A DNA stretch of 32,000 nt from Candidatus Jordarchaeales archaeon (GCA_038858525.1 JAWCFL010000014.1:1-32000), one strand, 5' to 3'; positions 602 through 29,350 are shown, numbered from the stretch's first letter. Numbers and translations: made by a program. The notes: generated from the sequence alone by a model not told the origin.

Positions 602-841
602 GCCCCTTTCACATGCTTCCCTTTACTTGTTTTCATGAATTTTTTCGTGAATATTGAGTACGTTTGAAAATCTATGTTGTAGATGATGAAGCGTTGTCCC
701 TCGTGTTTGATTTGTAATGGAGGGTGATGTTTCGATGGTCGCTGAGAAAGGTATATCTTGTTTCTCTAATGGTTCGTCCCTGTTTACCTTTGCTTTCTCC
801 TTTTGGTTGCTATTGTTAATTATGGTGTTGATTATTGGTCT

Positions 842-1510
842 TCATACATCTCTTGTTTGGTGGACTAATTGTTTGAGCTCGTATAGGCTTTCAATGTATG
901 CGTCCGGCTCGGTTTTCAACTTTACGTGCGGGCGTTTAACCACGAAGACCTTTGACCCGGCTCTTTTCCCTACTATGACATCCGCGTCACTGTCTCCGAC
1001 TATGAAGCCTTCTGGGGGGCGGCATCCGAGTGCTCTGAATGCTTCAAGCACGCCGGTCATTTCGGGCTTTGCCTCGCTCTGCCTCTCTGTTCCGAGCGCC
1101 ACTACGACGCTGAAAAACCTCTGAAGGTTGAAGGATTTAACCTCGAGAGAAGTAACTCTAGGGGAAGTATTGGTGACTATGCCTAAGGGAACTTTGAGGC
1201 TGAGCTCCTCGAGAAATGAAACATCCTCGTAAGGGCGTATAACGCCGCGCTCTATCATCTCCTTCCTAGTTCTGTAATCTAGCTCGTCAAATGTCCTCCA
1301 GAAGGTGTATGGGTCTTCCACACCCCAACTCCTCAAAAGCTCCCCATGTCCTTGCCCGCTGATCCATAGTTTCATGCGTTCATGAGCTGGAGGAACCGAA
1401 GCTCCAACCTTTTTTAGGACCATAACTAAGATGTTATCGAAAAAATTAGTTGAAGGAATCCTTACGAGGGTTCCATCTAAGTCAAAAATAATAGCCTTAA
1501 CTGTCCGCAT
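842..1510 (-). CDS. HAD-superfamily IA hydrolase (phosphoglycolate phosphatase-like)
   Basis: All four HAD motifs are present: FDLDGT, VTNT, KP and GDSDAD. The start is 5 bp after the upstream stop. Confidence 0.9.
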   Translation of the reverse strand: MRTVKAIIFDLDGTLVRIPSTNFFDNILVMVLKKVGASVPPAHERMKLWISGQGHGELLRSWGVEDPYTFWRTFDELDYRTRKEMIERGVIRPYEDVSFLEELSLKVPLGIVTNTSPRVTSLEVKSFNLQRFFSVVVALGTERQSEAKPEMTGVLEAFRALGCRPPEGFIVGDSDADVIVGKRAGSKVFVVKRPHVKLKTEPDAYIESLYELKQLVHQTRDV

Positions 1511-1515
1511 AGACG

Positions 1516-2652
1516 CTATGCCTCTCCTGTCACTCTAAGGCGGCTGGCTACAAGGTCAACTAGGTCACAAACCCTGAGTTGAGAATCAAGTCTCTTGGAT
1601 GCCAAATCAAGGTTCGTCCTGCACAATGGGCACACTGTAATCAGGTACTTTGATCCCGTGGCTTCAGCTTCCTTAACCCTCCTCTCGGCGATGCGCACTG
1701 CCAGCTCCGGGTTCAAAGTGAAAAGGCCGCCTCCGCCACCGCAACAATTCGCTTCAGACCTGTTTTTCTCCATCTCTACTAGCTCGACACCAGGAATAAG
1801 TTTGATCAGCTCCCTTGGTGGGTCATAGAAGTTGCAATGTCTCCCGAGGTGGCAAGGGTCATGATAAGTCACTTTAACCGCTTCCCCCTCTCTCAGCTCA
1901 ATTACTCCTTCTTTAGCTAAGTCCCTTATGACTTCCGAGATGTGTTTAACCTTGAATCCGAAGTTTCCGACGAGCTCCGGGTAGGCTTTAGTGAACGTCG
2001 AGTAGCATCCTGCGCAGGGGGTAATCACCGTTGATGCTTCAGTCTTGTCGAAGAGCAACGCGTTTTGCTCCGCTAGTTGCTTCGCCAGCTCTGTTTGGCC
2101 ATCCCAGTATGGGTGCATTCCGCAGCACACTTCATCCTTCAGCAGCGTGAAATCATATCCTGCAGCTTTGAGCATTGAGACTGCTTTCTTTACTGTTTCC
2201 TGATGCCTAAAGGCGTTAACGCATCCAACAAACAGCACGCCATCACTTTTCTCAGGCAGAGTAACGTCTAGCCATTGAAACCTTGCCTCCTGAGGGGAGG
2301 CATACGGATTTTTGTCTCTTGCTATCCTCATGTCCATCCTCTTGTTCGGTGGTGGAGGAGCAACGCCAGCCCTGGAGAAAGCCCTTCTGGCGCCGAGCAT
2401 GACTTCCAGCGGGGATATTCCAGCGTCGCAGTTAAAGTTACACATAGCGCACGAAGTGCACTCGTAAACCTTCTCGATGACTTTCTGTGTCGGCTCAAGC
2501 AATCCGTAAACAATCCCCCTAAGGAGGATCATCCTCCCCCTTGGCCCCTCAGACTCCCACTTTGTAACGCTGTAAACCGGGCACTTTATCCTGCACCAGG
2601 CGCAAATGTTGCACATCGCAATCTGCGTCTTGAACTTTTCCAGCTCCTCCAT
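1516..2652 (-). CDS. HdrD/GlcF-like Fe-S protein (two 4Fe-4S motifs plus two CCG domains)
   Basis: Ferredoxin motifs CNICAWCRIKCP and CTSCAMCNFNC; CCG modules GC..CCG..PCAGC and HDPCHLGR..CCGGG..VCPLC. Confidence 0.9.
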   Translation of the reverse strand: MEELEKFKTQIAMCNICAWCRIKCPVYSVTKWESEGPRGRMILLRGIVYGLLEPTQKVIEKVYECTSCAMCNFNCDAGISPLEVMLGARRAFSRAGVAPPPPNKRMDMRIARDKNPYASPQEARFQWLDVTLPEKSDGVLFVGCVNAFRHQETVKKAVSMLKAAGYDFTLLKDEVCCGMHPYWDGQTELAKQLAEQNALLFDKTEASTVITPCAGCYSTFTKAYPELVGNFGFKVKHISEVIRDLAKEGVIELREGEAVKVTYHDPCHLGRHCNFYDPPRELIKLIPGVELVEMEKNRSEANCCGGGGGLFTLNPELAVRIAERRVKEAEATGSKYLITVCPLCRTNLDLASKRLDSQLRVCDLVDLVASRLRVTGEA

Positions 2653-2653
2653 T

Positions 2654-4096
2654 TTAGGCCACCACCCTCGTCGGCATATAGACGAACTCGTCTCTCGGAA
2701 CCTCGATGAGCCCCATGACTCCGGGGTTCATTATGCCATGTGGGTCGAACACTTTCTTTATGGCTCGCATATATTTTATAGTGTCGCCATGTTCAAGCTC
2801 CACCAGGCTTGCCTTGGTCACACCGAGTCCGTGTTCAGCTGACAGCGTTCCGCCATACTTCTTGACCACGATCTCTGCGAGTCTTCTAGCGAACTCCGCT
2901 CCGGCTCTTCTATCCTCTTCCTTCCAGGGATTTATCGCTGTTCCAAGATGGATGTTCCCGTCACCTATGTGTCCGAATATCACCATTAGTCTACCTTGGC
3001 TTTGCGCCGTCGCCTTCAGCTCCCGGACGGCCTCGGGTATTCTCCCTATAGGGACTGCGAAGTCCTGTATGTTGTTTAGAGGTATGTTTTCCCCTCTCAG
3101 CTTGGCTAGCATGTTGGCGAGCGTATGGCGTAGCCTCATCAGCTCCTCAATTCTTTCAGCGTCTGTCGTGTATATAACCTTCTGGGCGCCCTTCTCCTCG
3201 CATATCTTCTTAACCATCCTGCTCTCTTCCTCAACGGTCCCCTCACTATAACCATCGTTCTCGATAAAGAGTAGTGCCTCTCCATTCGGTAGCTTCTCCT
3301 CAAGAACGTTGTTTATGATCATTATGCATATGTCGTCGAGAAGCTCCATAGCTGACGGAAGAATTCCTCTCCTCATGATCTCAACGGTTGCTTCAAGCGC
3401 CTGCTCTAGCTTCTGAAAAACGGGGATGGTTAACCCGTAATAGCGAGGTTTAGGCGTGATCTTTAGTATTACCTCGGTGAAGACGCCCAGCGCCCCCTCA
3501 GACCCAACGAATAGCTTAGTCAAGTTTAACCCTGAAGAAGACTTCCAAACTCTCCCTCCAGTCCTAATAATTCTTCCTCCCGGCAGGACAACTTCTAACC
3601 CAAGCACGTGGTCAACGGTCGCCCCGTACTTCAGGGCCCTAATCCCACTAGCGTTATTAGCAACCATCCCTCCAACCGTGCAGGCTATGGCTGAACCCGG
3701 GTCCGGCGGGAAAACATACCCGAGCTTTCCAAGCTCCCTGTTAAGCTCATCGTAAATCACGCCAGGCTCCACAACAGCAACCCTGTCCTCAAGGTCGATC
3801 TCCTTTATTTTATCCATCTTGCACATGTCTAAGACCACACCTCCCTTAACTGGTACCGCCTGCCCGCTTAAACTCGTCCCAGCCCCCCTAGGAACTATCG
3901 GAACCCTGTTCTCATTCGCCCATCTGAGTATTTCTGCGACCTCTTCTCTGCTTTCTGGTCTCGCGACGGCGGCCGGCATGCTCATCCTCATCGAGGCATC
4001 CATACTGTAAGCGTAAAGGTCTGCGATCTCAACGCTCACATCGTCCTCTCCTACGACGCCCGCCAGAAACCGGTAAATCTCCTCTCGACTTAACAT
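2654..4096 (-). CDS. FAD-linked 2-hydroxyacid oxidoreductase (GlcD / D-lactate dehydrogenase family)
   Basis: Motifs PRGAGTSLSG, PPDPGS, GGMVANNASG, GSEGALG, GHIGDGNIH and AEHGLG. Substrate cannot be determined from sequence. Confidence 0.92.
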   Translation of the reverse strand: MLSREEIYRFLAGVVGEDDVSVEIADLYAYSMDASMRMSMPAAVARPESREEVAEILRWANENRVPIVPRGAGTSLSGQAVPVKGGVVLDMCKMDKIKEIDLEDRVAVVEPGVIYDELNRELGKLGYVFPPDPGSAIACTVGGMVANNASGIRALKYGATVDHVLGLEVVLPGGRIIRTGGRVWKSSSGLNLTKLFVGSEGALGVFTEVILKITPKPRYYGLTIPVFQKLEQALEATVEIMRRGILPSAMELLDDICIMIINNVLEEKLPNGEALLFIENDGYSEGTVEEESRMVKKICEEKGAQKVIYTTDAERIEELMRLRHTLANMLAKLRGENIPLNNIQDFAVPIGRIPEAVRELKATAQSQGRLMVIFGHIGDGNIHLGTAINPWKEEDRRAGAEFARRLAEIVVKKYGGTLSAEHGLGVTKASLVELEHGDTIKYMRAIKKVFDPHGIMNPGVMGLIEVPRDEFVYMPTRVVA

Positions 4097-4211
4097 GCTT
4101 TGAAGCAGCCTCCTAACTCATTTAACGTTTAAACAATAAACGGCGCTTTAAGATATACTTTTCCGGAAATAGCGACCTGAGAAACAGCGCGGAACTCTCC
4201 GCCTTCCTCCG

Positions 4212-4224
4212 TTTATTATATATA
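4212..4224 (+). promoter_or_regulatory. TATA-box-like element upstream of hdrA
   Basis: TTTATTATATATA lies about 55 nt before the GTG start, in the divergent spacer. Confidence 0.5.
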
Positions 4225-4278
4225 CTACCTGGCTTTTCTGTTTGCTTGAGCTGGGAAGCTGAACACGGAGGCAGGTGC

Positions 4279-6237
4279 GTGAAGCCACGTATAGGTGTCT
4301 ATGTTTGCCACTGCGGCACTAACATTGCTGGTGTCGTGAACGTTGAAGAGGTAACTAATTATGCTGCCACCCTTCCGGACGTCGTCGTGGCAAGGGACAT
4401 GATGTATACGTGCTCTGACCCAGGTCAGAACACGATAAAGGAGGACATAGAGAAGCATGGCTTAAACCGTGTTGTCATAGCTGCATGTTCTCCAAAGATG
4501 CACGAGAACACTTTCAGGAAGACGCTCGCGTCAGCCGGACTTAACCCTTACCTCTTGGAGATAGCAAACATAAGGGAGCAGGTTTCATGGGCTCACTTCA
4601 GGGAAAGAGATAAAGCCACCGAGAAGGCGAAGGTGCTCGTTAAAGCCGCTGTAGCTAAAGCGAGACTCCTTGAGCCATTAGAGAAAAAGGAGATGCCGGT
4701 TGAAAGGTCCGTCCTTGTAATAGGCGGCGGAGTGGCAGGCATACAGGCTGCATTGGACTTGGCTGAGGCCGGCCTAAAGGTTTACCTCGTCGAGAAGTCC
4801 CCCAGCATAGGGGGGCACATGGCGCAGCTCAACAAAACCTTCCCAACCATAGATTGCTCCGCATGCATCTTGACCCCGAAAATGGTTGATGTTGCGAACC
4901 ACCCCAACATAACACTACTAGCCTACAGTGAAGTGGTGAAAGTTGAGGGATACGTTGGCAACTTCGAGGCGACAATACTCAGGAAGGCGCGCTACGTGGA
5001 TGAGGACCTTTGCGCTGGGTGCGGTGCCTGCGCGGACGCTTGCCCCAGAAAGGTTCCAAACGAGTTTGATGTTGGCCTCGGCAAGAGAAAAGCGATATAT
5101 GTGCCATTCCCCCAAGCGGTCCCCCTCAAATACACAATAGACCCTGCTAGCTGCCTCTACATGAAGTACGGGCGCTGCAAACTATGCGTTAAAGCGTGCC
5201 CGCGTGGAGCGATAAACTTCGATCAGAAAGACGAGGAAGTAAAAGTGAGGGTTGGCGCCATAATAGTCGCCGTTGGATTCAAAGTGTTTGATGCTAGGAA
5301 AATACCGTCCCTAGGATATGGCAAGTACAAGAACGTTATCACTGGGATAGAGCTTGAAAGGCTGTCGAACGCGTCGGGGCCAACGGGGGGAGTGGTTTTA
5401 ACGGCTTCAGGAGAGAGGCCCAAGAGCGTGGCATTCATACAGTGTGTCGGCTCAAGGGACCTGAATCATAACAGCTGGTGTTGCAGAATAGGGTGCATGG
5501 CCACTCTTAAGCAAGCCTTCCTCATAAAGGAAGAAGACCCGGATGCTGAAGTCTACGTATGCCATATAGACATGAGAACAGCTGGAAAGGGATACGAAGA
5601 GTTCTACAGGAGACTCAGGGAGATGGGTGTACGCTTCATACACGGCGTCCCATCTGAGATATTCGAAGACGCCGATGGGAAGCTCAGGTTCAACGTGTTC
5701 GATCAGACAACCGGACATATGATCGAGCTAAAAGTTGACATGGTCGTGCTCCAGACAGGACTAGAGCCTGCAGAGGACGTCGAGAAGCTTCAGAAGATGC
5801 TGAACGTCTCGTTGAGTCCTGAAGGTTTTTTCTTGGAAGCTCACCCGAAGCTTCAACCGGTTGAGGCAAGCACGCGGGGAATATTCTTTGCGGGATGCTG
5901 CCACAGCCCGAAAGACATAGCCGAAACAGTAGCACACGCGAGCGCCGCTGCGGCCAAAGCTATAACTCTTCTCTCCAAGGGGAAGGTGGACGTCGAACCA
6001 TTAACCGCCTCAGTAAACCCTGAAATCTGCTCGGGATGTGAAGTTTGCACCGGCATATGTCCCTACAGGGCGATACAGCTAATGGAGTACGAGGGGCGAA
6101 GAAGAGCCAAGGTGATCGATGTCCTCTGCCAAGGTTGCGGGGCGTGTGTCGCTGCTTGCCCAAGCAACGCCATCGAAATGAAGGGCTTCACGGAAAAGCA
6201 GATCCTAGCTCAAATAGACGCTCTAACAGGAGGGTGA
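4279..6237 (+). CDS. hdrA: Heterodisulfide reductase subunit A (FAD, Fe-S)
   Basis: Motifs VYVCHCGTNIAG, AACSP, GGGVAG, KTFPTIDCSACIL, four CxxCxxCxxxCP-type ferredoxin motifs and FAGCCHSPKDI. GTG at 4279 follows GGAGG; the track start is TTG 4246. Confidence 0.96.
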   Translation: MKPRIGVYVCHCGTNIAGVVNVEEVTNYAATLPDVVVARDMMYTCSDPGQNTIKEDIEKHGLNRVVIAACSPKMHENTFRKTLASAGLNPYLLEIANIREQVSWAHFRERDKATEKAKVLVKAAVAKARLLEPLEKKEMPVERSVLVIGGGVAGIQAALDLAEAGLKVYLVEKSPSIGGHMAQLNKTFPTIDCSACILTPKMVDVANHPNITLLAYSEVVKVEGYVGNFEATILRKARYVDEDLCAGCGACADACPRKVPNEFDVGLGKRKAIYVPFPQAVPLKYTIDPASCLYMKYGRCKLCVKACPRGAINFDQKDEEVKVRVGAIIVAVGFKVFDARKIPSLGYGKYKNVITGIELERLSNASGPTGGVVLTASGERPKSVAFIQCVGSRDLNHNSWCCRIGCMATLKQAFLIKEEDPDAEVYVCHIDMRTAGKGYEEFYRRLREMGVRFIHGVPSEIFEDADGKLRFNVFDQTTGHMIELKVDMVVLQTGLEPAEDVEKLQKMLNVSLSPEGFFLEAHPKLQPVEASTRGIFFAGCCHSPKDIAETVAHASAAAAKAITLLSKGKVDVEPLTASVNPEICSGCEVCTGICPYRAIQLMEYEGRRRAKVIDVLCQGCGACVAACPSNAIEMKGFTEKQILAQIDALTGG

Positions 6238-6241
6238 GCTG

Positions 6242-6664
6242 GTGGAGTACGAGCCACTCATAGTCGCTTTCCTCTGCAACTGGTGCAGCTACGCAGGAGC
6301 AGACCTTGCAGGGATGAGCAGAATGGAGTACCCCGCAAACATTAGGGTGATAAGGGTCATGTGTAGTAGTAGAGTCGACCCAGCACACGTTCTTTACGCC
6401 CTTAAAAGAGGGGCTGACGGCGTCCTCGTATCAGGCTGCCACCCGGGCGACTGCCATTACATAAACGGCAATCATAGAGCTAAGCGCAGGATTATCCTCC
6501 TGAAGGAGCTACTTAGGCAAATGGGTGTAGAGCCAGAAAGAGTGAAAATTGATTGGGTGTCGGCGTCTGAGGGAGAAAGGTTCACGCGGATAGTCAAAGA
6601 GTTCGTGGAGGAACTTAGAAAGCTGGGCCCAAACCCCCTCAAGGAGGACGCACGGGAGGTGTAA
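6242..6664 (+). CDS. mvhD: MvhD-type 2Fe-2S subunit
   Basis: Motifs FLCNWCSYAGADLAG, RVMCSSRVDP and GCHPGDCHY. All ligands are Cys codons. Confidence 0.95.
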   Translation: MEYEPLIVAFLCNWCSYAGADLAGMSRMEYPANIRVIRVMCSSRVDPAHVLYALKRGADGVLVSGCHPGDCHYINGNHRAKRRIILLKELLRQMGVEPERVKIDWVSASEGERFTRIVKEFVEELRKLGPNPLKEDAREV

Positions 6665-6666
6665 GG

Positions 6667-7173
6667 ATGCTAACGCTTAACGAGACAGACAGGCTCCTAG
6701 AAGAGCTAAGAGAATCCATCGCAACACTCACCCCCTCGGTGTGCTACAGCTGTGCCCGCTGCTCGTCGGGCTGCGTCATGGTCGAGGCGGGCTGCATCCC
6801 CCACAGCATAATCCAGCTATTTAGACTTGGCCTCCTGAAGGAGACCGAAAAAGGACTATGGCCCTGCTGTCAATGCCTTAAATGCGATGCCAGATGCCCA
6901 CAAGATGCTAGACCAGCAATGCTGATCCTCGCTCTGAGAAACCTGCTCGTAGCGCGCGGCCACGCTCCGCCGAAGGGCTACATAGTCATGCTCGAAAACA
7001 TTGTACGCCATGCCACCATACAGCCACCTCAAGAGGTGATGAACAAGGACTTCGACTTCGTCTCGAGAGCTACTCTCGGGCTCCCCGAGCTGGGGAAGCC
7101 GACGAACATGGATGCATTCAGACGGAACCTAAGAAAGATAGCATCGAACCTGTTGGAGGCCGAGGAGAAATGA
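6667..7173 (+). CDS. hdrC: Heterodisulfide reductase subunit C
   Basis: Motifs CYSCARCSSGC and CCQCLKCDARCP. The stop overlaps the hdrB ATG (ATGA at 7170-7173). Confidence 0.85.
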   Translation: MLTLNETDRLLEELRESIATLTPSVCYSCARCSSGCVMVEAGCIPHSIIQLFRLGLLKETEKGLWPCCQCLKCDARCPQDARPAMLILALRNLLVARGHAPPKGYIVMLENIVRHATIQPPQEVMNKDFDFVSRATLGLPELGKPTNMDAFRRNLRKIASNLLEAEEK

Positions 7174-8039
7174 AGTACACCGTGTTTTGGGGATGCATGA
7201 TCGCAACGGTCGAGTATGGATATGAAATTTCAGTGCGCGAGGTTTTCCCCCGTCTAGGCGTGGAGCTCACCGATCTCGGGTGGAACGCTTGCTGCGGCTA
7301 CCCCATAATGCAGGTTAACAATAAAGCTTGGCTCTACCTTGCAAGCCGCATTCTAGCTGAAGCTCAAAGGCTTGGCATCCCTCTCTTCGTTCCATGTAAC
7401 GGATGCCACATCTCCTTGTGTGAAGCACAGCACATTTTAATAAAGCGAGACGAGCTGGCAGCGTGGGTTAACGAGTTACTCAAAGAAGAAGAACTGCGCT
7501 TCAACCCAAGCAAACCCATCAAGGTCCTACACACTATCGAGGTGCTGCATGACGAGATAGGACTGGAAAACCTCAAAAAGGCAGTGGTGAAGCCTCTAAG
7601 CTTCAAGGTAGCATGCCACTACGGTTGCCACATCCTTAGGCCTAGTGACTTTCCCCGCGTCGACGACGCTGAGAATCCGAGCAAGATGGAAGCAATACTT
7701 GAAGCCATAGGAGCCAAGACTAGTGATTATCCTGAACGGCTTGAATGCTGCGGAGCGGGGGCAAACGTTGTTGAGCCAGAGCTCGTCGCTCGCCTCTGCG
7801 GCTGGAAACTTAAAGTGGTGAAGGCTAGAGGTTTCGACGCAATGGTTACATCATGCCCCGCCTGCCAGGCTAACTATGACGCCAAACAAGACGCCATAAG
7901 GCAAATAATGAATGACCCAGATGTTTCGCTTCCCGTCTTCTACCTGACTCAGCTGGTAGGCCTCGCCATGGGAATCGAACCACGCAAGCTCGGCCTAGAC
8001 CTTAACAAGAGCCCTGTCGAATCCCTCATTAACCTCTAA
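7170..8039 (+). CDS. hdrB: Heterodisulfide reductase subunit B
   Basis: Two intact CCG motifs: WGC..ACCG..PCNGC and HYGCHILRP..ECCGAG..SCPACQ. Confidence 0.92.
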   Translation: MKYTVFWGCMIATVEYGYEISVREVFPRLGVELTDLGWNACCGYPIMQVNNKAWLYLASRILAEAQRLGIPLFVPCNGCHISLCEAQHILIKRDELAAWVNELLKEEELRFNPSKPIKVLHTIEVLHDEIGLENLKKAVVKPLSFKVACHYGCHILRPSDFPRVDDAENPSKMEAILEAIGAKTSDYPERLECCGAGANVVEPELVARLCGWKLKVVKARGFDAMVTSCPACQANYDAKQDAIRQIMNDPDVSLPVFYLTQLVGLAMGIEPRKLGLDLNKSPVESLINL

Positions 8040-8078
8040 CCCTAAAAATCTCCACGCTTCCCCTCTTTATTGTAATGC

Positions 8079-8666
8079 TTATCTTTCCTTTTTCAGTGTT
8101 GCCTCCGATACCAGTCCGCTTCTCAAGATGCTTCTTGAGAGTATGCGGGCCACTCTGAGGGGCTCCGGAACTGCGCCTTGAAGCGTGAAGCGGTTTAGGA
8201 GAAGGCGCGCCTTCCTTACAGTCATATTTATGCAGCGTATCAGTATCTGATGCCCTGTGTGAAGTGTGACCCTTTGCCTTTCACCAAGCCGCCTGTAAAC
8301 AGCCAGCCTCTCCTCCCAATCATCAAAGTACTTTCTGAGATAATTCTCTAGTCCCTCTGATTCCTCGTAAGTGACGGCAATCAGCGGCTTAGCGGTCGCG
8401 GCATGGATAACTTCTAAGTCTACTATGTTGAACCAGCTTATGACGCAGCCATTCAGCATTATGACGTTGATGTCTTTTCTCTTCAAGTTCTCGTAAAGCC
8501 TGAGTATACTTTGCGTCGCGTCCATCCCTCCGACGGTGGCTGTGGCGAAGGAGAAGCCATCGATCTGCAGGTCTCCTCTCATAACTACGCCAGAAATTAC
8601 GGAGCACTTGGCACCTTTAATGAAACTCTCCGCAACCCCCAAAACCCTCACGCCACGCTTAATCAA
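8079..8666 (-). CDS. DUF99 / UPF0215 protein (endonuclease V-like fold)
   Basis: Motifs RVLGVAESF, GVVMRGDLQIDG, VGGMDAT, GCVISWFNIVD and VPEPLRVA. TTG start follows GGAGG. Confidence 0.85.
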   Translation of the reverse strand: MIKRGVRVLGVAESFIKGAKCSVISGVVMRGDLQIDGFSFATATVGGMDATQSILRLYENLKRKDINVIMLNGCVISWFNIVDLEVIHAATAKPLIAVTYEESEGLENYLRKYFDDWEERLAVYRRLGERQRVTLHTGHQILIRCINMTVRKARLLLNRFTLQGAVPEPLRVARILSRSILRSGLVSEATLKKER

Positions 8667-8688
8667 GCATCTGCCTCCAAGCTAGAAG

Positions 8689-9015
8689 CTAGAGCAACTT
8701 GGTTAGCGCCTCACGGACACGCCACCCCGCTCTGAAAGCCTCCTCAAACTTCCCCGACCGGTAAGCCTCAGCTGTAAAATTTAACTCCTCTATAATTTTC
8801 TCTATGAACTCAGGGCTCAGGTCAACTTTATCCTTAACCCTTGGGGTGGCGATCTCTTCCAATCCGTGTTTAAGCGAAAGCTTAGCTAAGAAAACCTCCA
8901 ACTTAGCGCGGGCAAACCAGAGTTCCACTTCCCCACTTCCTCCGTTTTCAAGCGCCTCTTTAGCTCTGAGAAGTTGCTGAAGAGCATCTTCAAGCTCGTC
9001 CAACGCAACCACCAA
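8689..9015 (-). CDS. Small all-helical hypothetical protein
   Basis: 108-aa amphipathic-helix sequence ending 22 bp upstream of the DUF99 start, with no competing long ORF. Confidence 0.7.
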   Translation of the reverse strand: MVVALDELEDALQQLLRAKEALENGGSGEVELWFARAKLEVFLAKLSLKHGLEEIATPRVKDKVDLSPEFIEKIIEELNFTAEAYRSGKFEEAFRAGWRVREALTKLL

Positions 9016-9177
9016 TCAACAGTGACCGTTAGAGACCCTAGAAAACGTCGTAATAAATGTTTTCAGATTTAAGAACCCATCTATGTCCTTTTTAGGCCAT
9101 TTCATGTTTTAGGCGCTCCAAAAACTTTTAATAGAATGCACTTAGTTAAAAGTTGTAGTTGCTTAGGGGTGGGTTCC

Positions 9178-11574
9178 TTGGGTGGAGCGTGGAGGTCTAT
9201 TGGTGAAATTGAAGAATACGATCTGCGTGGTAATATCTTAGTGTTAAATTGCGGTGAACTCGGAGCCGAAGTGAAGGTTGTGGGCTCCAACGTTTTTAGA
9301 GTTCGCCTTATGACTCCAGACAAAGTCCATAGTCCTCCCTGGATTGTCAGGGAATGCGAAGCCGCACCAAGCTTCGCGTTTAAGGATGAAGACGAGCATC
9401 TTACAGTTTCAACTGAAAACTTATTACTGAAGGTTCGTAGGAACCCGTGTAGGCTGGAATTTTATGCTCGTGACGGCTGGTTGATCAACCGTGATGATTC
9501 GGGTAAGGGGATGGGGTGGGACGGGGAGCAGGTTCGGTGCTGGAAAGAGATGCCTGAGAACGAGCACTACTTCGGTTTCGGGGAAAAGGCTGGCCCCCTT
9601 GACAAACGCGACCAAGCACTAACAATGTGGAATACTGATAACGTATACCATTACACGCCTACAGACCCTCTATACGGCTCTATCCCCTTTTTCATGGCTC
9701 TAAGAGACGGGAGGAGTTACGGCATCTTCCTTAACAACACTTACCGTTCCTCCTTCGACATGGGGAAGGAATCCTCAAGCTACTACTCCTTTGGAGCCGA
9801 GAGAGGGCCTCTTGAGTACTACTTTATTTATGGCCCGGAACCCAAAAAAGTACTTTTTCATTACACTGAGCTGACTGGTAGACCCTTCCTTCCCCCACTC
9901 TGGAGCTTAGGCTATCATCAATGCAGGTGGAGCTATTACCCCGAGAGCAGGGTTAAAGAGGTTGCATCTGAACTCAGAAAGCGGAGAATACCATGTGATG
10001 CCGTTTGGCTCGACATAGACTACATGAATGGCTTCCGCGTTTTCACGTGGGATCAGGAAAAGTTCGCTGACCCGAAAAGAATGATGGAAGAGCTCAGTAG
10101 AAGCGGCTTCAAAACAGTGGTCATAGTTGATCCAGGAGTCAAGGTGGAGAGGGGGTATTATGTGTACGAGGATGGCTTATCGCGGGGCTACTTCGTTCGT
10201 CTCCCAAGCGGTGAGTTGTTTACAGGAGACGTATGGCCTGGAGCATGCCACTTCCCGGACTTCTCTAACTCAAAAGTTAGAGAGTGGTGGGGCTCACTCT
10301 TTAAAGAACTCTTAGAAATTGGAGTGGCAGGGATATGGCTCGACATGAACGAGCCGGCAGTCTTCCCTAACAAGACGATACGGCTCGACGCGGTGCATGA
10401 CGCCGACGGTAGACTTACAGACCACCGGGAAATACACAACGTCTACGGCTTCCTCATGGCCAAGGCCACATATGAAGGTTTACTTAAGCACCAGCCGGAT
10501 AAGCGCCCATTTATACTAACCCGCTCCTTCTTCGCTGGCATTCAGCGCTACGCAGCCGTCTGGACAGGGGACAACGAAAGCAGCTGGGAACACCTGAGAC
10601 TAAGCATACCCATGTGCCTCAACATGGGGATTTCAGGCGTACCGTTCGTCGGGGTGGACATAGGAGGCTTCAGGAGGAGTCCGTCGTCAGAGTTATTCGC
10701 GCGATGGATTCAGCTTGGCGTCTTCTACCCCTTCTGCAGAAACCATACAATGACGGGAACCCCCGACCAGGAACCGTGGGCTTTCGGGGATGAAGTGGAA
10801 TCGATCAGCCGCAGGTATATTGAGCTCAGATACAAGCTTCTCCCCTACATTTACAACTGTTTTTACCAAGCTTTCCGGACAGGGGTTCCAGTCATGCGTG
10901 CGATGTTCATCGATTTTCCAGACGACCCAAACATTTTCTCCGGCACAATGGATGGATACATCACGGAAAGGCAGTTCATGGTTGGAGACTGGCTGCTAGT
11001 CGCCCCAATAGTCTACGAGGGGGCAAGGTCACGCATCGTCTACCTGCCTAAGGGAGAGTGGTTCAACTTCTGGACGAACGAAAAATACAGCGGAGAACTT
11101 CCAATCGTAGTTGAGGCACCGCTAGACGTTTGCCCTATCTTTGTTAGGGGAGGAGCAATAATCCCTATGCGTGACGTAGTCCAGTACTCTAACGAAAAAC
11201 CAATAGACCCTCTTGTGCTCAACGTATACCCGTCTGGGTCTTCAAGGGTAGAGTACTATGAGGATGATGGAGTAAGTTTTAACTACGCTGAAGGCGAATA
11301 CCTCATAGTTGAGTTTACCTGCAAGAATAACGAGAACGCTATAACTTTCGAGATTAGTGAAAGAAAAGGAAGTTATAACCCTGGAGCAAGAACATACGAA
11401 ATAAGGTTTAATGGCATAGAAGCAAAACCGCTAAAAGTCCTAAGGAACGGAGAAGAATTAAAGCAAAAACACGTAGGCACACCGTCATGGACATACATTG
11501 AGAGAGAAAGAGTAGTAGTCGTCAGGATACCGGACGAAGGAAGACGGGAGTTGCTCGAAATAAAAATGCGGTAA
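9178..11574 (+). CDS. Glycoside hydrolase family 31 (alpha-glucosidase-like), cytoplasmic
   Basis: Nucleophile motif WLDMNEP, acid/base motif WTGDN, plus YHQCRWSY, WLDIDY, DIGGF, RWIQLG and YEDDG. TTG 9178 follows GGGGTGG; the track start is ATG 9136. No signal peptide is visible. Confidence 0.95.
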   Translation: MGGAWRSIGEIEEYDLRGNILVLNCGELGAEVKVVGSNVFRVRLMTPDKVHSPPWIVRECEAAPSFAFKDEDEHLTVSTENLLLKVRRNPCRLEFYARDGWLINRDDSGKGMGWDGEQVRCWKEMPENEHYFGFGEKAGPLDKRDQALTMWNTDNVYHYTPTDPLYGSIPFFMALRDGRSYGIFLNNTYRSSFDMGKESSSYYSFGAERGPLEYYFIYGPEPKKVLFHYTELTGRPFLPPLWSLGYHQCRWSYYPESRVKEVASELRKRRIPCDAVWLDIDYMNGFRVFTWDQEKFADPKRMMEELSRSGFKTVVIVDPGVKVERGYYVYEDGLSRGYFVRLPSGELFTGDVWPGACHFPDFSNSKVREWWGSLFKELLEIGVAGIWLDMNEPAVFPNKTIRLDAVHDADGRLTDHREIHNVYGFLMAKATYEGLLKHQPDKRPFILTRSFFAGIQRYAAVWTGDNESSWEHLRLSIPMCLNMGISGVPFVGVDIGGFRRSPSSELFARWIQLGVFYPFCRNHTMTGTPDQEPWAFGDEVESISRRYIELRYKLLPYIYNCFYQAFRTGVPVMRAMFIDFPDDPNIFSGTMDGYITERQFMVGDWLLVAPIVYEGARSRIVYLPKGEWFNFWTNEKYSGELPIVVEAPLDVCPIFVRGGAIIPMRDVVQYSNEKPIDPLVLNVYPSGSSRVEYYEDDGVSFNYAEGEYLIVEFTCKNNENAITFEISERKGSYNPGARTYEIRFNGIEAKPLKVLRNGEELKQKHVGTPSWTYIERERVVVVRIPDEGRRELLEIKMR

Positions 11575-11780
11575 TACTCGACGTCAAGATAACTACCTTG
11601 TTGCTTTGCGTTCTCCTCTCAGGAACCTTAGAGTGGTATATTGCTTTCGTCCCGGGGAATTCAACAAACATACACCCTGTCCAAGCTTCCAGCACTCTCA
11701 TTAATCATATATAAACACAAGCAAAAATATTGAATAGCCAATTTGACTGCCAGAAACACTGACAGACCTCACTAGGAGAG

Positions 11781-11812
11781 GCTACTGGGACGAACAAGCT
11801 CGTCCCAGTAGC
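11781..11812. other. Perfect 13-bp inverted repeat (hairpin) between convergent genes
   Basis: GCTACTGGGACGA-ACAAGC-TCGTCCCAGTAGC, followed on + by a C/T tract to 11835. Confidence 0.85.
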
Positions 11813-11836
11813 GTCCCCTTCCCCCTTCCCCTTTTA

Positions 11837-12265
11837 TTAAGGGGAGCCATGCAGTATCCTTTTTAGAGTATTCTCCAAGTCTTCTCGAACCGTACTTTTT
11901 CTCCCAAGTATTCGCGCTATCTTTTCGCGGAACTCCTTGAATGTACTGACTTCACCGTTCCAGTCCTCCAAATTTTTACCGTATTTCTCTAGAAATTCTG
12001 TGCCGACCCTTTCTGCAACTGCTTCCACCTCTCTATCATTATCACCCACAACTACTACTAACAATGGTGAGACCTCTTTCAGGTAAATATATGATGACCC
12101 CATTTTTATCGTGCTTATCCCTTTCTTAAGCTCATTTTTAGCTATCTGGAAGACAGCGTTGAGGAAACCTGAAGATAGTAATGGGTCCTTTAATTTACTT
12201 TCCGATACCTCATAGCAGAAGAGAGGCACTCCGTCTTTCAGTACTAAGATTTCCTGTATCAACAT
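11837..12265 (-). CDS. Stand-alone longin-like domain protein (Asgard type)
   Basis: Pattern ILVLKDGVPLF...DPLLSSGFLNAVFQIAKNEL...F..KY....W.G....F..F, matching longin-fold proteins as I recall them. Confidence 0.8.
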   Translation of the reverse strand: MLIQEILVLKDGVPLFCYEVSESKLKDPLLSSGFLNAVFQIAKNELKKGISTIKMGSSYIYLKEVSPLLVVVVGDNDREVEAVAERVGTEFLEKYGKNLEDWNGEVSTFKEFREKIARILGRKSTVREDLENTLKRILHGSP

Positions 12266-12908
12266 TGTCCCTCTTCTTCATTCACGTAAAATGATTTCTA
12301 CCCTGATAACAGGGCATAAATTTAGTTAAAAATTTTTCGTGAATTTATTTTTACAAAAAATTAATTTTACATCCGCTGAAAATAATAAATCCACTAAAAA
12401 GCAACAAGAGAAAAAATGAAAATAACCCTTCCGATAATCTTATTTCGCATGTCACATACCCGTAAAATGAAAACTCTGCAATACACTTATCTCGATTAAA
12501 CTTAACCGGCCTCTGATAATTTGGATCCGAAAATCTAGATTCGCCCGCAATCACTCTAGTAGCAATTAAATTGATATTTTAACCTTCTCCTCCACCTTAA
12601 ACGCTTAAACCTCAAAAAATAGAAATTTTTAATTGTAGTCCTACTTGCTGCTAATTGTTCGTAAAAAATTAGAGTTTATGTTTCTGTTCATTATCTTCTT
12701 TCGGTTTTAAGGGCGATAAACCTTTCTCGTTGTTTTTTGTCAACATCAATCAACTTTATGTTTTTCTCAGCATCTCCCGTATGAACTCCAATTTAAACCC
12801 CTTTAGAAATTACTGGCAAAATTTCCAGGGTAGATTTCGAGGAAGGTAACCTTTAAAGCTCCTTCAGAGCTGTTTTTACTGCTAAGGTTGTTTTTGGGAG
12901 GCATCCTC

Positions 12909-13664
12909 TTGGAGGCCATTAAGACTTTTTCTCTAACAAAGATTTACGGGTCAAATGTAGGCGTGGAGAATCTTAACTTGGAGGTTTTCAGTGGGGAGAC
13001 TTTTGGTTTTCTTGGGCCCAATGGTTCAGGAAAGACTACGACAGTCAGGCTGTTGAATTGCATTATTCGTCCGACGAGCGGAGGTGCGAAAGTCGGCGGG
13101 TACGATATACTGAGCGAGAGCGAGAAAGTTAAGAAGATAACTGGGCTTCTTCCAGAGGTTCCAGGGGTCTATGAGAAGCTTACAGCACGCGAGTTTCTGG
13201 AGTTCATAGGCAGCCTTTACGATGTTCCATCAGCAGTTTTAAAGCGAAGGATTAACGACCTTCTAGACTTTTTTGAGCTCAGCAACAGGGGGGATGAGCT
13301 CCTCGAAGGCTTTAGCAAGGGAATGAAGCAGAAGGTTCTGCTTGCCTCCGCCCTCATACATGACCCTGAAATAATATTCTTGGACGAGCCGACTAGTGGC
13401 TTAGACCCGATTTCATCCCGCATGGTTAAGGACCTCATAAAAATGCTTGCCTCTGAAACAAACAAAACATTCTTTATATGCACTCACATACTGCCTCTCG
13501 CCGAGGAAGTGTGCGAAAGAATCGGAATAATAGACCGCGGGCATCTCAAGGAGGTTGGCTCCCCCGAGGAGCTAAAGGAAAAATATGGAGCAAAAAACCT
13601 AGAAGAGGTCTTCCTTCAGGTTACTGGTAGAAAAGTTACAAGGGACATGATAGAGTGGGTGTGA
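12909..13664 (+). CDS. ABC exporter ATP-binding subunit
   Basis: Walker A GPNGSGKT, signature FSKGMKQK, Walker B IIFLDEPT and H-loop CTH. TTG 12909 follows GGGAGG; the track start is 12888. Confidence 0.95.
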   Translation: MEAIKTFSLTKIYGSNVGVENLNLEVFSGETFGFLGPNGSGKTTTVRLLNCIIRPTSGGAKVGGYDILSESEKVKKITGLLPEVPGVYEKLTAREFLEFIGSLYDVPSAVLKRRINDLLDFFELSNRGDELLEGFSKGMKQKVLLASALIHDPEIIFLDEPTSGLDPISSRMVKDLIKMLASETNKTFFICTHILPLAEEVCERIGIIDRGHLKEVGSPEELKEKYGAKNLEEVFLQVTGRKVTRDMIEWV

Positions 13665-13665
13665 A

Positions 13666-15450
13666 ATGCCTTCCTGGCTAGCCGTTGCAAAAAACGAATA
13701 CCGACTAATGCTGTCCGGAAAAGTGACGAGGCGCCTCAGAAAGCCTCTACCAATACTGCTCGTCTCCGCCGTAATAACGATGGCTGCAGTTCTGATAACT
13801 GCATCGCACTCCCTCTCCTTGGAACTCAGACTTAAAGAGAGTCTAGAGAGCATGTTGGCGCTCCCCCTGAAACTTGACCCGTTTATCCTCCTCCTTATTA
13901 CTGACACTTCCTTTGTTTGGAGGATGGGTTCGCTTGCAGGAGTTTTCGCCTTCCTCATCCCCATCTTCGCCGCGATTGGACGCCAGCTGGAGGAGGCGGA
14001 GGTAGTTAGCAAAGATGTGGTGCTTTCATCCCCTCTTAAGCCCGTACACGTTCTCATAGGCGAATTTATGGTTAACCTTCTTATGCTTCCCGTCATTCTC
14101 CTACTATCCACGCTATTTTTCATTCCTCTCGCGCTTATCTTCTACCTGTCACTTCAGACAATCGTCCTGATCTTCGCAACATTAATCTTGGCCAGCCTTA
14201 CTGGTATCTGGATTGCGGTAATAGTTTCGACATACCTTTTTACGCGTGAATATAGAAGTAAAGCTAAGTCGGCTTTGAAGGCTTTGCTGGGAGTTCTCGG
14301 CGTAGCCATGGGTATCGGCATTCTCGTCTTATCAATGTCCACTACACCTTCAAGCTTCTGGTTCTTGCCTCCTGTATGGGTCGCTAACACGATCCATTTC
14401 GCTGTCACTCAAAGCAACGTAGCCGTAGTCAAAATCAACTTCGCATACTTCTTTATTCCGCTTCAACCTGATGGATGGACAAGCTTCACGCTCCTAGCCG
14501 TTTTATTCACTCTTTCATTCTTATTAGGAGCAGCCTGCTCGAGCAAAATAAAATTCACAAGCGTATTTGAGGGAAGAGAAGAAACTTCCATCATAAAAGG
14601 AGAAAACCTTTTTTATAAAGCGTTCAGGAAGGCGCTTCCGTATCCATTAAACATCATGGTGGTGTCTCAGCTCAAGGAGTTCACGAGGAGAACCGATAAC
14701 ATCGCTAGGTTCGTATCGGTCATCATGTTACCCCTTGTCATCCTTCTTATGAGCCGGATGATGCGGTCCGACGTCACGAGTGGAGGGGATTCCCTGCTTG
14801 TCCTCTCCTCTCTCTCAAGCTTTTACTTTGTGCTAGTAGGCGTCATGCTCCCCATGATGGTAATCCCATACGTCTTCATAGATAGCAAAGACCTCTTATG
14901 GACTATAAAAAAGACCCCTAAAGGGATCAGGCTTATGATCTACTCAATGGTCATTGAAACGTTATTTTTGAGTGTACCGCTGTCCGCTGTCTTAGCTTTA
15001 CTGTTCCACCTATCTATTGGGAGCATCGGAGGAAACCCCGCACTACTCCTAGCGGTAATGTTTTTCATGGTGCTCGTCAGCACAGCTATCACCACGGGCG
15101 TTTACGCGTCAAGACCAGTCTTTAAGGAAAAGGGGTTCGGTCACTTTGTGAACTTCGTCATAACACTCATCGTGACCGGAATAATAGTATCCGCAATGCT
15201 CATCCTGCTTGTAACACCATGGGTTCTCAACCTAATAGTAGCTGCGCCTTTACTTCAAGCGGCATCATGGCTTCCTCAACCCACCTCGATAGTAATCAGC
15301 CAAACCCTGACATACTTGATAACTAATGTTTCGCCGTCAAACATTACTCTTCAAATGGCGGGAGCTGCAGTCTCCATCATACTTGGGACAATAAGCATTC
15401 GTGTATCAATAAGAAGAGGCATTCGGAAACTGGAGTCATATGAAGGATGA
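13666..15450 (+). CDS. Large polytopic membrane protein, ABC exporter permease
   Basis: More than 10 hydrophobic segments; starts 1 bp after the ATPase stop. Confidence 0.85.
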   Translation: MPSWLAVAKNEYRLMLSGKVTRRLRKPLPILLVSAVITMAAVLITASHSLSLELRLKESLESMLALPLKLDPFILLLITDTSFVWRMGSLAGVFAFLIPIFAAIGRQLEEAEVVSKDVVLSSPLKPVHVLIGEFMVNLLMLPVILLLSTLFFIPLALIFYLSLQTIVLIFATLILASLTGIWIAVIVSTYLFTREYRSKAKSALKALLGVLGVAMGIGILVLSMSTTPSSFWFLPPVWVANTIHFAVTQSNVAVVKINFAYFFIPLQPDGWTSFTLLAVLFTLSFLLGAACSSKIKFTSVFEGREETSIIKGENLFYKAFRKALPYPLNIMVVSQLKEFTRRTDNIARFVSVIMLPLVILLMSRMMRSDVTSGGDSLLVLSSLSSFYFVLVGVMLPMMVIPYVFIDSKDLLWTIKKTPKGIRLMIYSMVIETLFLSVPLSAVLALLFHLSIGSIGGNPALLLAVMFFMVLVSTAITTGVYASRPVFKEKGFGHFVNFVITLIVTGIIVSAMLILLVTPWVLNLIVAAPLLQAASWLPQPTSIVISQTLTYLITNVSPSNITLQMAGAAVSIILGTISIRVSIRRGIRKLESYEG

Positions 15451-15509
15451 GGAGAGAAAGAAAAGAAATAATCCTTTTCATTTACAATTCATAAATTTGG
15501 GGGCTGCGA

Positions 15510-16721
15510 TTGACATTATACCTAAAGTATGTTAAAACCGGAAGGTGTGTTGGTTGCGGCTTCTGCGAGACCGTTGTGAGCTGTCCGAGCCCTGAGAGGT
15601 GTGTTGGTTGCGGCTCATGCTACCTTGCATGCCCCTTTATGGCTCGCGAACCCATCCCGGATAATCAGCCGAGAAGAAAAATTACGGTTACCGTTGATGG
15701 AGTGAAGTGCGAAGTTACCGGAGACGTTACTGTTAAGAGGGCGCTCGAATCTCTGGGGTATAAATTCTCGAGGTTTCCGGGTAAGGGCGCCCTGTTCTCG
15801 CCATGTCTCACCGGAGGATGCTACAGTTGCTCCGTATTAGTTAATGGCGAGCTCAAGGCTGCATGCCACACTAAGATCAGGGAAGGCGATGTTGTAGAGA
15901 CAAGGGTTGAGGGAAAAAACCAACTCAGAATAGTGGAGGGCTTCACCCCACATCAAGTAGGCGGAGTTGGAACTCCTTACTGGCTCAAGAAGAGAGGTGG
16001 ATACATAGAAGTTGCAGCATTCACAGCGGGATGCAATCTCAGATGTGCCTCCTGCCAGAACTACCACGTAACATACAACAGTTCCCTGCCACCAATGACT
16101 TCGCATGAAGCAGCTAGTAGGTTAAGCCTTATGAGGCGACGCTACGGCGTTGACAGGATGGCTGTAAGCGGGGGAGAACCAACTCTTAATCACCAGTGGC
16201 TTGTCGAATTCTTCAGAGAACTACGCCGACTCAACCCTGACGAGAAAGCCAGACTCCATCTCGACACTAACGCAACCATCCTAACTAAGGAAAGGATCGA
16301 TGACCTGATTGAAGCCGGCGTAACAGACATAGGGCCCGACCTTAAGTCTCTCCGCTTGGAGACCTTTCAGCTGATCACCGGAGTCAAGGAGAGGGAGCTG
16401 GCGAGGCTATACCTTGACACGTCGTGGAACGCAGTAAAGTACATTGCAGACGAGTACTACCCTGAAAAGGTGTTCATGGGAATAGGGATCCCATACAACA
16501 AGTTCTTTCACCCAAACTTGGATGAGCTGTTGAAAATGGGTGAAAAGATCGCTCGCATCGACCCCGATATACAGGTTTGTGTTCTTGACTATCGACCGGA
16601 GTTCAGGTCAAACATAACACAACCCACTCTTGAAGAAATGAAGGCTGTGAGGGAAGCCCTCATAGGGGTGGGATTAAGGAAAGTTATCGCTCAAACCTCC
16701 CTAGGACATATCGGCCCATAA
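15510..16721 (+). CDS. Radical SAM protein (PflA/activase-like) with N-terminal 2x[4Fe-4S] and [2Fe-2S]-like domains
   Basis: Ferredoxin motifs CVGCGFC..CP and CVGCGSCYLACP; 2Fe-2S-like CLTGGCYSC..AC; radical SAM CNLRCASC and SGGEP. Confidence 0.9.
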   Translation: MTLYLKYVKTGRCVGCGFCETVVSCPSPERCVGCGSCYLACPFMAREPIPDNQPRRKITVTVDGVKCEVTGDVTVKRALESLGYKFSRFPGKGALFSPCLTGGCYSCSVLVNGELKAACHTKIREGDVVETRVEGKNQLRIVEGFTPHQVGGVGTPYWLKKRGGYIEVAAFTAGCNLRCASCQNYHVTYNSSLPPMTSHEAASRLSLMRRRYGVDRMAVSGGEPTLNHQWLVEFFRELRRLNPDEKARLHLDTNATILTKERIDDLIEAGVTDIGPDLKSLRLETFQLITGVKERELARLYLDTSWNAVKYIADEYYPEKVFMGIGIPYNKFFHPNLDELLKMGEKIARIDPDIQVCVLDYRPEFRSNITQPTLEEMKAVREALIGVGLRKVIAQTSLGHIGP

Positions 16722-16911
16722 ACTGGTGAGACTACTAATGTGAGGTTGCCTTTTATTTTTCCTTTCACCATGTCGCAGCGTTTTTGCTTTCAATCATTTG
16801 TCGCATGGTTAGGAGGAAGGGAGAAAAGTTAAATTTTGTTGGTTTTTATTTAGATCGGTAATTGCAGTTGCTTCATCTTTTTAAGTGTCCTTTAAAAAGG
16901 AGGTTTAGCCT

Positions 16912-17883: not shown

Positions 17884-17909
17884 CTAAATAAATTTTGAGA
17901 GGTAGTATC

Positions 17910-25788: not shown

Positions 25789-25790
25789 TT

Positions 25791-26402: not shown

Positions 26403-26417
26403 TTTCCTTCCTCCCGG

Positions 26418-26957: not shown

Positions 26958-27046
26958 CTTCCTAAAGGCATCAAAAGCACAGACCTCCTACTTTAATAAG
27001 AGGTCTTCCCCTAAAAATAAATCGGTTGAAAAGGAGGGAAGACTGC

Positions 27047-27727: not shown

Positions 27728-27733
27728 CCCTTT

Positions 27734-28408: not shown

Positions 28409-28423
28409 CGCGACACCCCAAAT

Positions 28424-29170: not shown

Positions 29171-29350
29171 CCGTTCATGTTCTCAAGTCTAAATGCCAAG
29201 AAACAAAATATAAAGTTAGAGTTTCAAACATTAAATTCTGCTAGCCTTTACACGCAAAATCTAATCTAACGCAACAGTAAACTACAGTTAACAAAGCAAT
29301 TAAAGTCGCTCTTCCCCTTACTAGAATGGGCTTCCCTCTGAAACTTTCCC

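Follow-up and report, generated by a model that had tools for sequence, protein, structure and literature searches.

The first 32 kb of contig C14 from a hot spring Jordarchaeia metagenome-assembled genome (MAG), a stretch of 32,000 nt hereafter called the window, carry two divergent operons which we suggest, with a probability of roughly 55%, to encode two separate soluble enzymes linked through a common thiol/disulfide pool rather than one complex. The minus-strand operon (842-4096) consists of the genes for a GlcD-like, an HdrD-like and a HAD protein, and the plus-strand operon (4279-8039) is made up of hdrA-mvhD-hdrC-hdrB, that is, heterodisulfide reductase (Hdr) genes together with mvhD. 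The host is an Asgard archaeon (2.09 Mb in 63 contigs, 92.7% complete), as a first-pass annotation of the window had supposed; its closest public records are Candidatus Jordarchaeia/Jordarchaeum MAGs (GlcD identity 90-93%), a lineage that also goes by the name Freyarchaeia (PMC11291895). That annotation had described a hydrogenase-less Hdr operon placed head-to-head with a 2-hydroxyacid dehydrogenase operon in a probable non-methanogen, and had proposed that lactate or glycolate oxidation could be coupled to flavin-based bifurcation or confurcation using an unknown disulfide. The ORFs and domains found here match the head-to-head arrangement, and mcrA was not found in the genome, which agrees with a non-methanogenic host. 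As a whole, the earlier interpretation is partly supported, in that it overreaches on bifurcation and on the weight given to the linkage of the two operons. Intergenic distances within either operon range from -4 to +5 bp (4, 2 and -4 bp along hdrA-mvhD-hdrC-hdrB), indicating that both are tight operons, and the cofactor motifs are intact in the proteins of both.

The right operon is predicted to encode a full HdrABC-MvhD core, with ligand and flavin-site residues kept. HdrA, the flavin-based electron-bifurcating subunit (4279..6237, +), lies in an ORF that is open from a TTG at 4246; the GTG at 4279 is the likelier start, because a GGAGG motif is located 8 nt upstream and the alignment to HdrA of Methanothermococcus thermolithotrophicus MvhAGD-HdrABC (5ODC_A; 810 bits) begins at the very next residue. 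Counting residues from TTG 4246, which makes GTG 4279 residue 12, residues 13-660 align to 3-649 of 5ODC_A, and the Glu of GIELERL and the Lys of ATLKQ correspond to Glu356 and Lys409, respectively, bearing out their earlier assignment to the flavin positions. Lys409 sits at the flavin N5 and is conserved among HdrA homologues (PMC6405883); it therefore marks an intact HdrA and points to no particular electron donor. The protein has 30 Cys and three CxxCxxCxxxC motifs, and its score of only 935 bits against the NCBIfam HdrA2 model (cut-off 1100) is explained by MvhD being encoded as a protein of its own. MvhD (6242..6664, +; Pfam FlpD, 196.4 bits), the [2Fe-2S] adaptor through which electrons enter or leave HdrA, matches 5ODC_D with 183 bits over residues 2-136 and keeps five of five Cys. 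HdrC (6667..7173, +) is a divergent ferredoxin subunit for two [4Fe-4S] clusters, with CxxCxxCxxxC motifs at residues 26 and 67, low scores against TIGR03290 (42.4 bits, cut-off 160) and HdrC 7BKB_C (52 bits), and no Pfam match. HdrB, the disulfide-reducing subunit (7170..8039, +), carries two complete CCG motifs for non-cubane [4Fe-4S] clusters (C9..C41C42..C78xxC81 and C153..C193C194..C231xxC234) and matches HdrB 9SFI_C (211 bits) and 5ODC_B (198 bits) from end to end, with 227.9 bits against TIGR03288 (cut-off 345). No subunit of either operon attains its NCBIfam equivalog cut-off.

The left operon begins with a GlcD/Dld-type FAD-dependent D-2-hydroxyacid dehydrogenase (2654..4096, -; FAD_binding_4 165 bits, FAD-oxidase_C 192.5 bits), which scores 389 bits against TIGR00387 glcD (cut-off 568). 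The solved structures nearest to it are mouse D-lactate dehydrogenase 8JDC (258 bits), glycolate oxidase 9QGZ (238 bits) and LctD 7QH2_C (236 bits), scores so nearly equal that D-lactate and glycolate are not separated as substrates. The second gene encodes a soluble HdrD/TfrB-like Fe-S subunit (1516..2652, -; Pfam CCG 126.6 bits in two stretches, plus Fer4_8), whose CxxCxxCxxxC motifs lie at residues 14 and 65 and whose two CCG motifs, both complete, start at 144 and 267. In NCBIfam it scores highest against TfrB (204 bits, cut-off 385), with GlcF reaching only 84.5 bits (cut-off 333), and by these scores the protein appears nearer to thiol:fumarate reductase TfrB than to GlcF. Together the pair fits the Dld/GlcD-HdrD class, in which a FAD_binding_4 plus FAD-oxidase_C flavoprotein adjoins a protein with two 4Fe-4S and two CCG motifs; a GlcE gene was not found in the operon. 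The last gene encodes a HAD-IA family phosphatase (842..1510, -; Pfam HAD_2 75.8 bits), whose best NCBIfam matches lie far under their cut-offs (PpaX 71.6 bits against 218, phosphoglycolate phosphatase 53.6 against 225). It is present at the orthologous loci of the Jordarchaeia family of the window (f1) and absent from those of the sister family f2. Phosphoglycolate salvage by the HAD, GlcD and GlcF-like proteins is thus neither supported nor excluded, the phosphatase being a generic HAD-IA member that is missing from the f2 cluster.

As the first-pass annotation had noted, the window holds no mvhA/mvhG, fdh or flx gene. Genome-wide family searches gave no NiFe large or small subunit, molybdopterin (PF00384) or FrhB/FdhB (PF04432) match on contig C14; among the ORFs of the window that were scanned (every one of 100 aa or more, and most between 80 and 100 aa), flxABC, fdhAB or FrhB-like domains were not found beside hdrA-mvhD, no Etf domain was found by Pfam, and no Pfam redox partner occurs among the remaining ORFs of at least 100 aa. 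The description as hydrogenase-less therefore holds for the window operon, but not for the lineage, in which one Mvh hydrogenase is encoded, in an mvhD-mvhG-mvhA cluster beside a different hdrA-hdrC-hdrB set. In a genome of the same genus (G003, 8 contigs) the gene order is carB, a glcD paralogue, comB, comA, mvhA (440 aa, NiFeSe_Hases), mvhG and mvhD, divergent from hdrA-hdrC-hdrB. From this order, two contigs of the window's own genome would abut, C35 with comA-comB at its start and C39 beginning inside mvhG, leaving mvhA in the assembly gap; a tblastn search with the G003 MvhA found no other MvhA in this genome. The remaining NiFe-like match, on C2, is NuoD/FpoD-like. Formate dehydrogenase was rejected as an alternative donor, both molybdopterin matches being FwdB (510 and 640 bits) and not FdhA.

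The genome holds six hdrA/mvhD pairs, the window set included, with differing neighbours. On C39, mvhG-mvhD is divergent from hdrA-hdrC...hdrB; C22 has a fused hdrA/mvhD, a polyferredoxin, hdrC and hdrB, and C34 has hdrC, hdrB and a fused hdrA/mvhD. The sets on C1 and C4 contain selenocysteine, and FrhB-like genes follow each. On C39, a clostripain-family peptidase with bacterial TSP3 repeats sits between hdrC and hdrB (C39:4857-7263); in G003, hdrB directly follows hdrC in the Mvh-linked set, without this insertion. The C22 genes (C22:2653-9400; the polyferredoxin has 443 aa) are divergent from a luciferase-like (F420-type) oxidoreductase gene, a layout resembling HdrA2B2C2.

The disulfide is not wholly unknown, in contrast to what had been stated, as ComA (292 bits, cut-off 280), ComD (170, cut-off 148) and ComE (248, cut-off 221.5) all exceed their NCBIfam equivalog cut-offs, and Pfam identifies ComB. 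The same coenzyme M (CoM) genes were listed for Jordarchaeia by Sun et al. 2021 (PMC9723677). Since ComA, ComB, ComD and ComE are encoded, the disulfide is probably CoM-containing, and from the gene content a disulfide of CoM with CoB or another thiol is plausible. In G003, comA-comB lies immediately downstream of mvhA in the divergent mvhDGA/hdrACB cluster (G003:C3:418000-437000, local 8806-17098), the counterparts in the window's own genome being C35:240-1717 and C39:1-1117. A GlcD paralogue lies ~2-3 kb from comB, and comD-comE is found on C13 (local 918-1980).

The energetics set limits on how the two enzymes can be connected. Textbook midpoint potentials are ~-190 mV for pyruvate/lactate, ~-90 mV for glyoxylate/glycolate, ~-140 mV for CoM-S-S-CoB, ~-500 mV for ferredoxin and -414 mV for H+/H2. 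By these values, lactate can pass electrons to the disulfide with a small gain in energy, whereas bifurcation from lactate to ferredoxin is an uphill reaction: ferredoxin and disulfide together average ~-320 mV as acceptors, too negative for a 2-hydroxyacid to drive HdrA-type bifurcation. Feasible connections between lactate and Hdr are limited to a shared pool or to confurcation, and the coupling proposed earlier goes too far where it invokes bifurcation.

In the pool-mediated route that we favour, the GlcD/Dld-type dehydrogenase would oxidise a D-2-hydroxyacid, e.g. D-lactate or possibly glycolate, and the electrons would pass through the two [4Fe-4S] clusters of the HdrD-like subunit to its CCG site, where a disulfide, probably CoM-containing, would be reduced. 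A 2-hydroxyacid can reduce the disulfide directly, and a flavoprotein with an HdrD-like subunit would seem to be built for this reaction. The disulfide-handling site of the HdrB/HdrD superfamily is the site formed by two CCG motifs, and HdrB and the HdrD-like protein each have two complete ones, which we count in favour of a shared pool. The right operon, having no donor/acceptor module, must borrow one via MvhD, and its most likely partner would be the single MvhAG hydrogenase encoded beside the second hdrACB set. The window Hdr may then run in reverse, with thiols and reduced ferredoxin giving H2 at low H2 pressure, and would in this way re-oxidise the thiols made by the dehydrogenase. Such re-oxidation would need reduced ferredoxin together with an acceptor near -320 to -414 mV, H2 formation via Mvh being one such acceptor reaction. 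Of this scheme, the genes and their paralogy, the cofactor motifs and the places of mvh and the CoM pathway genes are observed here, whereas the substrates, the direction in which electrons flow and the partner of MvhD are inferred.

Several observations weigh against this explanation. The mvhA gene is absent from the 92.7%-complete assembly and is inferred from the congener G003, a second MvhD is not obviously needed for one hydrogenase, and classical ComC (Ldh_2) was not found in the genome. In addition, the near tie between D-lactate dehydrogenase and glycolate oxidase structures singles out no substrate for the GlcD-like protein, and other hydroxyacids are hinted at by the HAD phosphatase of f1 and, in f2, by an ALS-like TPP enzyme. 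Other CCG proteins (GlcF, GlpC and SdhE, for instance) can also serve non-disulfide acceptors.

In a tree of 41 Asgard HdrA sequences (SH-aLRT support), the window protein belongs to a clade of five f1 genomes (SH-aLRT 100), which stands apart from the Mvh-linked clade of Jordarchaeia and includes no sequence from the sister family f2. The clade is sister (SH-aLRT 90) to one from another Asgard family (f28), whose operon reads frhB-like, hdrA, mvhD, mvhG, mvhA, hdrC, hdrB; the next branch out is family f33, with hdrA-mvhD-hdrC-hdrB. The window HdrA thus appears from the tree to be a distinct paralogue whose nearest relatives are hydrogenase-linked, and a recent duplication of the Mvh-linked set was rejected. 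The window gene order equals that of f28 from hdrA to hdrB minus mvhGA. In a second genus of f1, the glcD-hdrA spacer and the mvhD-hdrC gap are each expanded by non-coding DNA of ~700 bp (G004:C19, local 7940-8670 and 11067-11762); a search for mvhG/mvhA remnants in that gap and in the 730-bp spacer gave no convincing match (tblastn, best E = 0.28).

The divergent glcD/hdrA pairing is kept in all f1 genomes whose contigs allow it to be seen, across two genera and down to an HdrA identity of 77%. A GlcD scan of public contigs gave only three loci, and the wider sampling comes from a genome search and a metagenome scan: the pairing occurs in two f1-like metagenome contigs, is absent in the other 25 of the 27 metagenome GlcD loci, and was found neither in f2 nor at the further Asgard loci inspected, which were the 30 top-scoring HdrA matches from a search of 400 genomes. 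However, synteny around the f1 pairing extends equally to the endonuclease dU gene and to a pair of small unrelated ORFs, which makes the conservation general synteny and no evidence of selection for the glcD-hdrA pairing. Synteny was therefore rejected as evidence for coupling, the linkage being confined to one Jordarchaeia family. A dedicated MvhAG, which the first-pass annotation had named among the findings that would speak against its proposal, does exist elsewhere in the lineage, but beside a different hdr set, so that this objection goes only half way. In f2, the orthologues (64% identity for GlcD, 55% for the HdrD-like protein) lie without a HAD gene, and the fused hdrA set found 8-15 kb away is an unrelated one; five metagenome GlcD orthologues (62-65% identity) have no hdrA in their sequenced flanks (up to 10 kb). 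As f2 keeps glcD-hdrD without the window Hdr paralogue, the dehydrogenase does not need that Hdr. Judged by sequence, comparative genomics lends no independent support to a special coupling of the two operons. The f2 module (G007:C109, local 773-8592) comprises genes for the ALS-like TPP enzyme, two tandem, 64%-identical glcD orthologues, hdrD-like and ilvD (dihydroxy-acid dehydratase), which suggests a substrate other than plain lactate.

The spacer (4097..4278) measures 182 bp from GTG 4279, in agreement with the ~180 bp given earlier, or 149 bp if counted from TTG 4246. A TATA-like box can be read for each operon, TTTATTATATATA for hdrA (4212-4224, +) and AAAAGTATATCTT for glcD (4150-4162, -), as can GGAGG ribosome-binding sites at 4267-4271 (+) and 4109-4113 (-). 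An alignment of four same-genus spacers showed that the glcD-proximal half is conserved and includes a palindromic element, AACGTTTAAAC (4124-4134), between the glcD TATA-like box and the glcD start codon; the two palindromes that overlap within it, AACGTT and GTTTAAAC, show no variation across the four glcD-hdrA spacers and could constitute a putative operator. As a shared regulatory motif the element was rejected, since AACGTTTAAAC occurs twice in the genome against ~1.3 expected occurrences, and at none of the other hdr or glcD loci.

With synteny set aside, the two operons could be incidental neighbours, the GlcD/HdrD-like pair being a GlcDF-type oxidoreductase for glycolate or a D-2-hydroxyacid whose acceptor differs from the Hdr substrate (quinone, ferredoxin or another carrier) and the Hdr set an Mvh-linked isoenzyme with no specific link to it. 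This we hold to be rather unlikely, though of real weight: the adjacency is limited to one family that keeps endonuclease dU and the two small ORFs in synteny to the same degree, glcD-hdrD of f2 and of the metagenome orthologues (62-65% identity) has ALS-like and IlvD genes as neighbours and no hdrA nearby, the HAD phosphatase suggests a role in phospho-hydroxyacid salvage, and the spacer motif defines no regulon. Moreover, with at least five GlcD paralogues, about eight HdrD-like genes and six hdrA sets in the genome, one chance adjacency is unsurprising. Yet the HdrD-like protein is closer to thiol-using TfrB than to GlcF (204 versus 84.5 bits), no gene for a membrane anchor or quinone-site subunit lies beside it, and the divergent promoters, only ~60-90 bp apart, would make co-regulation easy. 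A different alternative concerns the Hdr substrate itself, which might be a protein-bound dithiol (lipoate-binding or DsrC-like, cf. bacterial sHdr and DsrK) of another pathway. HdrA, HdrB and HdrC all score under the methanogen NCBIfam equivalog cut-offs, with HdrC very divergent, in an organism without mcrA, and the Asgard literature refers to 'an unidentified heterodisulfide' (PMC11291895). We nevertheless regard such a substrate as improbable, considering that CoM biosynthesis genes are present, with comAB beside the mvh/hdr cluster in the congener, that HdrB matches its methanogen counterpart over the entire length with neither CCG motif lost, and that no lipoate-binding or DsrC-like gene was found in a search confined to the window and not extended to the rest of the genome.

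The opposite extreme would be a direct supercomplex, in which GlcD/HdrD-like replaces MvhAG on MvhD and wires 2-hydroxyacid oxidation to the HdrA flavin for bifurcation or confurcation. To this reading we give a very slim chance. It draws on the fact that the window Hdr has its own MvhD, with GlcD/HdrD-like as the sole redox module encoded nearby, and on the gene order, which is that of the nearest relatives minus mvhG-mvhA; elsewhere, MvhD joins HdrA to non-hydrogenase donors, such as formate dehydrogenase in 7BKB. An hdrA-mvhD-mvhGA-hdrCB operon of f1 would then have lost its hydrogenase genes in a non-methanogen and a GlcD/HdrD-like dehydrogenase would have been recruited to dock on MvhD, a scenario that seems highly doubtful; if true, it would represent a previously unknown 2-hydroxyacid-dependent, HdrA-based confurcating/bifurcating supercomplex. 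However, ferredoxin together with a disulfide at -140 mV is out of reach for lactate (~-190 mV), and the reverse reaction would waste reduced ferredoxin. Furthermore, the HdrD-like protein keeps a complete disulfide site of its own, which would be redundant if it were wired to HdrA, the glcD-hdrD orthologue occurs without a window-type Hdr in f2 and in metagenomes, and there is no FrhB/FdhB-like docking subunit as in other MvhD-linked donor modules.

Elsewhere in the window, six successive minus-strand ORFs of 179-259 aa without a Pfam match at E <= 1e-4 occupy 25051-30130, interrupted by a plus-strand DUF1922 ORF at 27026-27727. Three plus-strand genes at 15510-19145, which may be cofactor-related, encode in this order a radical SAM protein whose N-terminus bears 4Fe-4S and 2Fe-2S domains, a protein distantly similar to CofD (52 bits, cut-off 257) and a DUF389 membrane protein.

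Compared with known systems, HdrA, MvhD, HdrB and HdrC align full-length (810, 183, 198 and 35-52 bits, respectively) with the methanogen complexes 5ODC, 8RVU, 9SFI and 7BKB, with conservation of Lys409 and Glu356, of the two CCG motifs and of the residues that ligate the [2Fe-2S] and [4Fe-4S] clusters. Unlike those complexes, the window operon has no mvhA/mvhG, its scores lie under the equivalog cut-offs, the organism has no Mcr, the set is one of six and it would likely work in the reverse direction, i.e. by confurcation. LctBCD (Ldh-EtfAB) of Acetobacterium woodii (7QH2), whose LctD is homologous to the GlcD-type subunit (236 bits), shares with the window the idea that lactate oxidation needs the help of reduced ferredoxin; here, though, an Fe-S/CCG subunit and an Hdr core stand in place of Etf, and the acceptor would not be NAD+. 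Glycolate oxidase GlcDEF likewise combines a GlcD-type flavoprotein with a CCG Fe-S subunit, and 9QGZ scores little lower than D-lactate dehydrogenase, but GlcE is missing from the operon, and GlcF and GlcD score well under their cut-offs (84.5 versus 333 and 389 versus 568, respectively). Hydrogenase-free HdrABC-MvhD modules with a non-hydrogenase partner are known from bacteria, namely FlxABCD-HdrABC of Desulfovibrio and MetFV-HdrCBA-MvhD of Moorella, where the partner genes flxABC and metFV lie in the same cluster; in contrast, no such genes occur among the window ORFs scanned. GlcD-HdrD pairs have reportedly been found in Bathyarchaeota, Verstraetearchaeota and Korarchaeia.

The closest precedent comes from Sun et al. 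2021, who described Dld-HdrD clusters in Sif- and Jordarchaeia, with as many as 13 copies of Dld, the majority next to HdrD, and proposed that electrons pass from D-lactate via HdrD to a heterodisulfide, with re-oxidation by Hdr-Mvh, thus leading from lactate to H2 (PMC9723677). Lineage, gene pair and proposed electron flow are the same as for the window, whereas the head-to-head Dld-HdrD copy with a hydrogenase-less hdrA-mvhD-hdrCB paralogue is not discussed in that text (PMC9723677). The concept of lactate oxidation through HdrD and Hdr/Mvh is therefore already published for Jordarchaeia, and the locus adds no new principle. What is added here is a distinct HdrA lineage with hydrogenase-linked nearest relatives, a pairing confined to one family, a sole mvh cluster located beside comAB, and a thermodynamic limit on the coupling.

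The role of Hdr and the nature of its disulfide in non-methanogenic Asgard archaea are a question for models of Asgard syntrophy and eukaryogenesis. The window provides a clean, intact Hdr core stripped of hydrogenase genes, in a genome with a CoM pathway and many dehydrogenase/HdrD pairs, and this combination fits the idea that a pool of heterodisulfide serves as a soluble carrier of electrons.

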